From a virus (lineage: Duplodnaviria; Caudoviricetes), in the IMG/VR virus record IMGVR_UViG_3300014208_000023, positions 32,001 to 96,000 of that record: a stretch of 64,000 nucleotides of DNA. One strand, written 5' to 3'. The translations under genes were made by a program, and so were the position numbers. Shown piece after piece: positions 6,110-6,840 of this stretch (positions are counted from its first letter, which is position 1; every line of letters starts with the position of its first letter). The notes beneath the pieces are model-generated. The model was given only the letters and a program-made list of their open reading frames with translations. It was not told the origin of the DNA and did no database searches.

Positions 6110-6840
6110 CACAGAAGTGTATTAGATTACTCGGAGAGTACGAACCGATAGTTGGAGTCATCGATGGAAGGTTAAAGGCCATCACCAATGTTCCGAGGCA
6201 TCCCTCTAACTGGTTGCTGAACAACCCGCACATAGAACATAATCTAACACACTTCAGTCGGTCCTTGATTATAGGCCTTTGGGGGAGGAGAATCCATAAT
6301 CAAGGACTGACTGAAAAGCGTTAGAGATTAATGATTTTAAACCAGCCCCTAACTTTTGGGCGCCTTCTAACTATGAGAGACTACCTCTACGGTCGAGGGT
6401 GAGATCAAGCACCCAGCGGCAAAGGGATCGTTTTACATCATAGAGTTAGCGGGCTGATTGAAAAGCGTTAGTGATACGGTAGAGCCAGCTACCGAACCTT
6501 TATTCAATTACCATTACTGGATGGTTGCCGCTATTACATTGCGGCTTCGCCTACTGATAACCAGGAATCAATTCTGCGGGGATAAGGAGGTTTTAGTCAG
6601 TTCCCTAACCTTGCGTCGGATTTAACCGCGAGTGTTTATCTTTGAGCTGCATCATGGACTTATGCTCGATTCAAATGCTGTTACGCACACACAAGCTCAT
6701 TGTCAATAGGTATGTATCATTTCAACCTAAAGACTCAGCATTCTACTTACATCCCTGTATCCTACCTGATGTAATCAAATAGGCCGGGGATAAAGACTAG
6801 AAACTACTATCTGACTTATAGTTTCCATTACCGGCAAATT
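6110..6840. ncRNA. Structured non-coding region (tandem long stem-loops)
   Basis: ~730 nt without a credible ORF; long inverted repeats 6114-6255, 6254-6315, 6343-6456; TGAAAAGCGTTAG twice; many short hairpins. Confidence 0.55.

Follow-up and report, generated by a model that had tools for sequence, protein, structure and literature searches.

A 775-nt gene-free gap in the early-type region of an uncultured 428-kb jumbo phage is, tentatively, best explained as a non-coding part of a leftward early transcript, in which variant forms of the phage's own separator modules are followed by a folded leader for a 129-aa gene. The repeated motif of the gap and its main hairpin turn out, as far as sequence comparison can tell, to be copies of the intercistronic long-stem element of this phage, and the stems are probably sites of double-strand-RNase action or of RNA stabilisation. 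Taken alone the stretch is a modest finding; its value lies in the repeat being tied to a genome-wide family of elements, and in the removal of readings that linked the gap to the large phage RNAs GOLLD and ROOL or to integron attC sites.

The window analysed, 64,000 nt in length, runs from base 32001 to base 96000 of a virus record that is complete at 428,320 bp and has direct terminal repeats; coordinates of features are those of the window. The standard genetic code fits, because recoding of stops gives no lengthening of long ORFs; an alternative code, with any stop recoded, was rejected on this ground. Genome positions 1-68 kb, inside which the gap lies, have a G+C content of 0.41-0.54, as against mostly 0.33-0.40 in the remaining bins examined to 160 kb, and the genes of this early-type region are all on the minus strand except for one small HNH-like frame on the plus strand. 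The existence of an ORF-free region of ~730 nt, on which the earlier sequence-only reading was built, was borne out: the gap extends from 6091 to 6865 between two genuine minus-strand genes, contains no ORF of at least 60 aa on the gene strand, and is single-copy in the 428-kb genome, a second copy having been searched for and not found. The features of the locus, in the 5' to 3' order of the minus strand, are as follows.

6866-7141 (7141 to 6866), minus strand: upstream flanking gene for a very basic 91-aa protein, with an AAGGAG ribosome-binding site.
6761-6859, minus strand: three consecutive hairpins (6859-6831, 6827-6798 and 6783-6761), directly after the stop codon of the 91-aa gene.
6495-6760, minus strand: spacer with no unusual fold, containing TTGACA with a poor -10, a GCCGC/GCGGC hairpin (6527-6545) and ACCUCCUUA (6591 to 6583).
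6477-6494, minus strand: small G+C-rich hairpin (P 0.97 on both strands), directly 5' of stem A.
6451-6475, minus strand: motif copy 2, the 5' arm of stem A, identical to copy 1 at 22 of 25 positions and with the core CTA[AG]C.C..TTCA[AG]T.
6335-6464, minus strand: domain A, in which a long-range stem (6464-6444 with 6354-6335) encloses ~90 nt of branched insert.
6304-6328, minus strand: motif copy 1, the 5' arm of hairpin B, defined by the direct repeat and a core match.
6243-6325, minus strand: hairpin B, with arms of ~30 bp; within them, a 20-bp helix has one mismatch when read on the minus strand and none on the plus strand.
6116-6253, minus strand: domain C, ~108 nt of branched fold closed by a 15-bp stem (6253-6239 with 6130-6116).
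6093-6233, minus strand: 47-aa open frame inside domain C, its stop codon overlapping the start of the 129-aa gene (TAATG).
5701-6090 (6090 to 5701), minus strand: downstream flanking gene for a 129-aa protein, supported by homologs and a codon score of 0.24.

Further upstream, a terminator-like hairpin with a T-run (7197-7213, minus strand) lies just ahead of the 91-aa gene, and the 91-aa gene together with the studied stretch may therefore begin a new transcript. The HNH-like frame (7184-7597, plus strand) is the sole plus-strand gene-like frame amid the minus-strand early genes and is divergent from the 91-aa gene; its product, ending in NLVPCCWVCNRAK, resembles a small free-standing HNH endonuclease, with a Pfam HNH match (E 0.002) that is below the cut-off.

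Homologs of the 91-aa protein were found at 95, 96, 90 and 67% identity, and Pfam, PHROG and PDB searches with it gave no match and no structural or family lead. Four further, distant homologs all occur in unrelated metagenome contexts without a gene-free gap, on contigs that have no other gene in common with the window. The motif H-x-NYHV(K/R)RKAW is common to the protein and its distant homologs (L009 2929-3195, L010 9890-10309, L012 13-225), and the gene has a G+C content of ~0.55 in a neighbourhood of 0.40-0.45; it looks like a small roaming gene of unknown fold. Same-length homologs of the 129-aa protein, 98% and 91% identical to it, show several conservative replacements such as D/E. The gene for the 129-aa protein lacks a ribosome-binding site, which is uninformative since one is also missing from 46 of 81 crude ORF starts here.

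There is no coding signal in the gap itself. The 47-aa frame, with a codon score of -0.001 (coding frames, 0.24 +/- 0.13; off-frame, -0.32 +/- 0.19), has no family match, is absent from the called proteins of this and all other genomes in the collection, and is probably non-coding. None of the small frames in the gap is a called protein in a collection of 15 billion sequences, which does hold the flanking genes. A pseudogene was considered and rejected: searches of the gap against Pfam and PHROG at E <= 1 found nothing, the genome contains no paralogous peptide, and homologs of the 81-aa plus-strand and 47-aa minus-strand frames were not found.

The inverted repeats named previously, the repeated TGAAAAGCGTTAG and the TTGACA are all present. 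The first inverted repeat (6111-6129/6240-6258) comprises 19 nt at 89% and the second (6243-6272/6296-6325) 30 nt at 87%, while the stem 6343-6354/6444-6456 appears in the folds of both strands with P ~0.9. The direct repeat (6304-6328/6451-6475), identical at 22 of 25 positions, carries TGAAAAGCGTTAG twice. Two smaller hairpins that had been noted, CGGTAG/CTACCG (6477-6494) and GCCGC/GCGGC (6527-6545), form with P of at least 0.93, and the minus-strand TTGACA at 6706 to 6701 is followed 17 nt later merely by TAACAG as a -10. Folding of the region as a whole is more stable than that of shuffled sequences on either strand (z -4.8 and -4.2), and segment-by-segment analysis shows where this resides. 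Values of z are -6.0 (minus) and -3.9 (plus) for 6108-6476, -10 and -8, respectively, for the hairpin segment 6240-6330, and -2.9 and -1.05 for 6755-6866; segment 6108-6262 reaches -54.0 kcal/mol (z -4.1) on the minus strand as against -39.7 kcal/mol (z -2.0) on the plus strand. Domain 6326-6500 by itself has a z-score of about -2.0, and 6326-6476 leans slightly to the plus strand. Conversely, 6476-6760 is ordinary (z -0.7 minus, -1.5 plus), leaving ~270 nt without a special fold. On these z-scores about half of the gap is unusually folded, with a strand bias mostly to the minus strand. The description of the region as tandem long stem-loops thus holds for 6108-6476 and 6755-6866 and fails for 6476-6760, which is at shuffle level. 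Similarly, the reported asymmetry between strands is real, although it is mostly one-sided rather than divided among the stems, 6108-6262 and 6755-6866 favouring the minus strand and 6326-6476 alone slightly favouring the plus strand.

Two larger arrangements were considered and rejected. A terminal inverted repeat (6061-6082/6847-6868), with one arm inside the coding sequence for the 129-aa protein and the other overlapping the 91-aa stop codon, is estimated to be at chance level. As for whole units duplicated in tandem, similarity past the 25-nt motif is not significant, 97 of 500 shuffles scoring as well.

On the minus strand, the stretch opens with the three hairpins behind the 91-aa gene, each with a pair probability of at least 0.95 and with G-U pairs present, which are probably stabilisers of the 3' end or a weak terminator. 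In the spacer that follows, the minus-strand ACCUCCUUA resembles the 3' tail of 16S rRNA; read on the plus strand (6583-6591) it is TAAGGAGGT, a perfect ribosome-binding consensus of which this is the sole plus-strand occurrence in the 428-kb genome, without a start codon in the next 20 nt. The small hairpin at 6477-6494 stands 1 to 12 nt ahead of stem A, where a canonical separator would have its cap. Domain A reads as a separator-like stem with cargo; its stem has P 0.73-0.96 on the minus strand, where one U-G pair would be A-C on the plus strand, and the domain is modestly supported (z -2.0 to -2.8), the 3' arm of stem A being decayed relative to the 5' arm.

Hairpin B is among the ten longest hairpins of the 428-kb genome, with 21 Watson-Crick pairs in the hairpin scan. 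Its 19-nt loop, AUUCUCCUCCCCCAAAGGC on the minus strand, is C-rich; it contains CUCCUCCCCC, which is like the 16S tail and whose plus-strand reading is the ribosome-binding-like GGGGGAGGAGAA. The closing stem of domain C has P 0.75, and the domain ends ~25 nt before the AUG of the 129-aa gene. Strand 6258-6240 has two possible partners, an upstream one with which it forms the base of hairpin B and a downstream one with which it closes domain C, so that only one of these folds can exist at a time. The downstream partner is itself a degenerate, third motif copy.

The kinship of these elements with the separators of the phage carries the preferred interpretation. In a separator of this phage, a GC hairpin leads directly into a 20-27-bp stem that encloses variable filler, and usually a start codon comes right after. 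Of the ten longest hairpins in the genome, nine lie within genome 38-66 kb, and most of those other than hairpin B are canonical separators directly ahead of start codons. Stems framed by TCTARC...GYTAGA with at least 14 pairs number three in the genome, namely hairpin B and the stems at 27037-27112 and 28002-28090. In minus-strand alignment, the core CUAAC-N-C-NN-UUCARU is common to both motif copies of the gap and to the 5' arms of the 27-kb and 28-kb separators. As CTA[AG]C.C..TTCA[AG]T it has seven hits genome-wide, at 6324, 6471, 27111 and 28089 on the minus strand and at 6244, 27038 and 28003 on the plus strand, which fall in four elements; 0.2 hits are expected from a shuffled genome. 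The genome has four minus-strand copies of AGTTAGARGG, the sequence with which the 3' arms of the separators at 27 and 28 kb end; two of the four are in the gap, where they have no complementary partner arm. The density of CTAAC/GTTAG pentamers also has its genome maximum at the gap, with 8 per 500 nt as against 0.83 expected.

When the three framed stems are placed in register, compensating changes at positions 12, 13, 18, 20 and 22 maintain pairing, and wobble pairs possible on the minus strand only exceed those possible on the plus strand only. This covariation is among paralogous stems within one genome, in which duplication-inversion could yield the same pattern. Near-palindromes can arise by that route without selection for pairing.

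The elements of the gap are not identical to separators in every respect. They share with the separators at 27112 to 27037 and 28090 to 28002 the arm core, the TCTARC...GYTAGA frame, the size class of the stem and a site in the early region, and the two copies of the 3'-arm end AGUUAGARGG are a separator feature found in the gap as well, while the small hairpin directly before stem A is possibly cap-like. However, hairpin B has neither the GC cap nor the CCYTCT 5' arm of a canonical separator, and its 3' arm is not of the ribosome-binding-like kind that precedes a start codon; the only frame that follows it is the doubtful 47-aa frame. Separators moreover stand singly between genes, while the copies in the gap are in tandem inside a gene-free stretch. 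Among the other long stems, the longest hairpin of the genome (11480-11635, minus strand; 28-nt arms, 24 Watson-Crick pairs and a 100-nt loop) also lacks a GC cap and a CCYTCT arm, like hairpin B, and has AAGGAG behind it. The filler of the separator stem at 25814-25947 (minus strand) contains GGGGTTCGAGTCTCC, which resembles a tRNA T-arm.

On the preferred interpretation, the folded core (~6108-6494) would be a run of tandem variant separators, made up of the cap hairpin at 6477-6494 with stem A, then hairpin B and then domain C. The long stems would work in RNA, most likely by being cut by a host enzyme of the RNase III type and by stabilising ends. No RNase III gene was found in the phage genome, which speaks against this reading, as do the ~270 nt that have no special fold and the narrow margin of domain A over shuffles. 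With regard to the stem length and setting of an RNase III site, hairpin B has its 20-bp helix (one mismatch on the minus strand) within 30-bp arms and stands between two genes on the same strand. Cutting could split the 91-aa message from the 129-aa message and stabilise the neighbouring messages, and a small folded RNA, or two, may be freed by it. Given the two possible partners of the lower arm of hairpin B, cutting or opening of this hairpin could also make the fold just ahead of the 129-aa gene switch. Transcription of the gap, its cutting and its effect on translation are what we infer from this arrangement, and the same applies to the function of the separators.

Close relatives of the locus do exist, in a 3,923-nt JGI contig with all three neighbouring genes and in further Logan and ENA contigs; as it holds all three flanking genes, the JGI contig should span the homologous stretch. 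Searches of viral, metagenome and genome contigs with the flanking proteins, singly or as alignments, returned only the four distant 91-aa homologs, none of them at this locus. GenBank phages gave no match by blastn or tblastn, and the 539-aa ATPase found only 37%-identical genes there, in unrelated phages. The motif CTGAYTGAAAAGCGTTAG had four chance matches in IMG/VR, all inside coding DNA, and the separator 3'-arm pattern found nothing. A pattern from the top half of a cloverleaf-like element at 5633-5701 matched ordinary tRNAs in unrelated phages only. A 25-nt stretch in the tRNA cluster of one unrelated 59.6-kb phage (IMGVR_UViG_3300043618_000014; L015 2894-3701) is 88% identical to window 8627-8651; in that cluster ARAGORN calls two genes with four-base anticodons (tgat and cgca).

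The alternative that survives best, though it is unlikely, is that the gap is mostly functionless filler, composed of the leftovers of duplicated separators and of lost genes, with hairpins kept through recent origin. The ~270 nt that fold no better than chance, the decay of the stem A 3' arm, the lack of significant similarity between units past the 25-nt motif, and the near-orphan status of the flanking genes in a fast-changing region would all suit such an origin. Nevertheless, traces of protein remnants were not found, hairpin B is nearly perfect over 30 bp, the z-score of domain C is strong and strand-specific, and the core has a G+C content of 0.44-0.47 as compared with the genome mean of 0.40, all of which argue against it.

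Slightly less probable than filler is a stand-alone large structured RNA (~370 to 775 nt) with a job of its own, such as protein scaffolding or self-assembly, comparable to GOLLD, ROOL or OLE, and released as a minus-strand product from the early transcript. A likeness to GOLLD and ROOL, which are often found beside tRNA genes in phages or prophages, had been suggested on the strength of an adjacent tRNA-like gene, and neither part of that suggestion was supported. There is no match to GOLLD (RF01998) or ROOL (RF03087) even at E <= 10; cmscan of the whole window against Rfam yielded no match at the gathering score, and at E <= 10 over 5900-7200 it yielded just chance miRNA-like hits on hairpin B. 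ARAGORN found no tRNA in the 64-kb window, the nearest in the genome being ~10 kb away. The 129-aa gene separates the gap from the cloverleaf-like element (5633-5701), ~390 nt away, for which Rfam gave no match at E <= 1. What stands of the non-coding RNA reading is that the stretch is non-coding, is in part highly structured and does contain a repeated motif; its assignment to the GOLLD/ROOL type is not supported. The gap resembles GOLLD and ROOL in being a large, gene-free and partly well-folded phage stretch, and differs from them in having neither a covariance-model match nor an adjacent tRNA and in being unusually folded over about half of its length. A large RNA would be in keeping with the multi-domain fold and its strong z-score, with the missing coding signal, and with the many spare CTAAC/GTTAG pentamers that could support alternative or intermolecular pairings. 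Besides the absent Rfam match and tRNA neighbour, however, it is opposed by the sizeable parts that are not unusually folded, by the lack of homologs in GenBank phages and, by motif, in IMG/VR, and by the best elements being copies of a cis-acting intercistronic module. A Y RNA was also considered and rejected, there being no Ro60/TROVE gene.

A discrete small RNA of ~390 nt on the plus strand, antisense to the operon, is improbable. It would start near 6113, behind the extended -10 TGATAGAAT at 6098-6106, end at the 6477-6494 hairpin and its T-run, and expose the strong ribosome-binding-like GGGGGAGGAGAA in the hairpin B loop. Promoter-like and terminator-like sites would then bracket the folded part exactly, and both the slightly better plus-strand fold of 6326-6476 and one plus-only G-U pair in hairpin B are in line with this. 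On the other hand, TGATAGAAT has no -35 element and is missing from the sites given by the promoter scan, and the terminator scan gives 6477-6494 on the plus strand as a weak site, with a 6-bp stem and a T-run 4 nt away. Segment 6108-6262 is, in addition, ~14 kcal/mol weaker on the plus strand, and the related separators work in the minus sense, since start codons follow them.

Little probability attaches to the idea that the minus-strand core (~6108-6494) is cut out as a trans-acting regulatory RNA that works on the phage's own separators. The two unpartnered AGUUAGARGG copies, the C-rich loop with CUCCUCCCCC and the mimicry of the 16S rRNA tail by ACCUCCUUA might, in such a scheme, serve in competition for separator arms or ribosome-binding sites, and so time the translation of early genes.

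Least probable, by a little, is a DNA-level element, whether attC-like or another kind of hairpin recombination site on single-stranded DNA, or a replication origin; such a DNA-level or two-strand function, which the sequence-only reading had drawn from the strand asymmetry, is disfavoured by the absence of tyrosine recombinase (PF00589 search, to which 14 of 14 control genomes respond) and Y1 transposase from the 428-kb genome, of ORF cassettes between the sites, and of a GC-skew turn, AT-rich tract or iteron set at the gap, and by sister elements that sit exactly ahead of start codons, even though hairpin B folds well on both strands. The resemblance to integron attC sites lies in imperfect inverted repeats whose outer ends, ...CTAAC and GTTAG..., are loosely like the R''/R' cores (RYYYAAC/GTTRRRY). 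One arm pair of hairpin B does fit as ATCTAAC/GTTAGAT; the other copies are off at the first or last position, so that most break the purine/pyrimidine rule of attC. This genome, unlike an integron, has no integrase or cassettes, and the reliance of stability on strand-specific, minus-only G-U pairs points to RNA.

If the interpretation of the gap as tandem variant separators with a folded leader is true, one hairpin module is reused in this phage both singly between genes and in tandem within a gene-free gap, T7-style RNase-cut early transcripts extend to an uncultured 428-kb phage, and a concrete set of stems is at hand for a cleavage test. The early transcript of T7 (R0.3 to R1.3) and the lambda N-leader contain RNase III processing sites. 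As here, those sites are long, irregular double-stranded hairpins between the cistrons of one early transcript, and the expected effect is the same, namely cutting by a host enzyme and stabilisation of the separate messages, with the cutting in the present case being putative. The stems of the gap differ from the T7 and lambda sites in that they are longer and more perfect, and stand several in a row, together with folded domains, in a gap of 775 nt.
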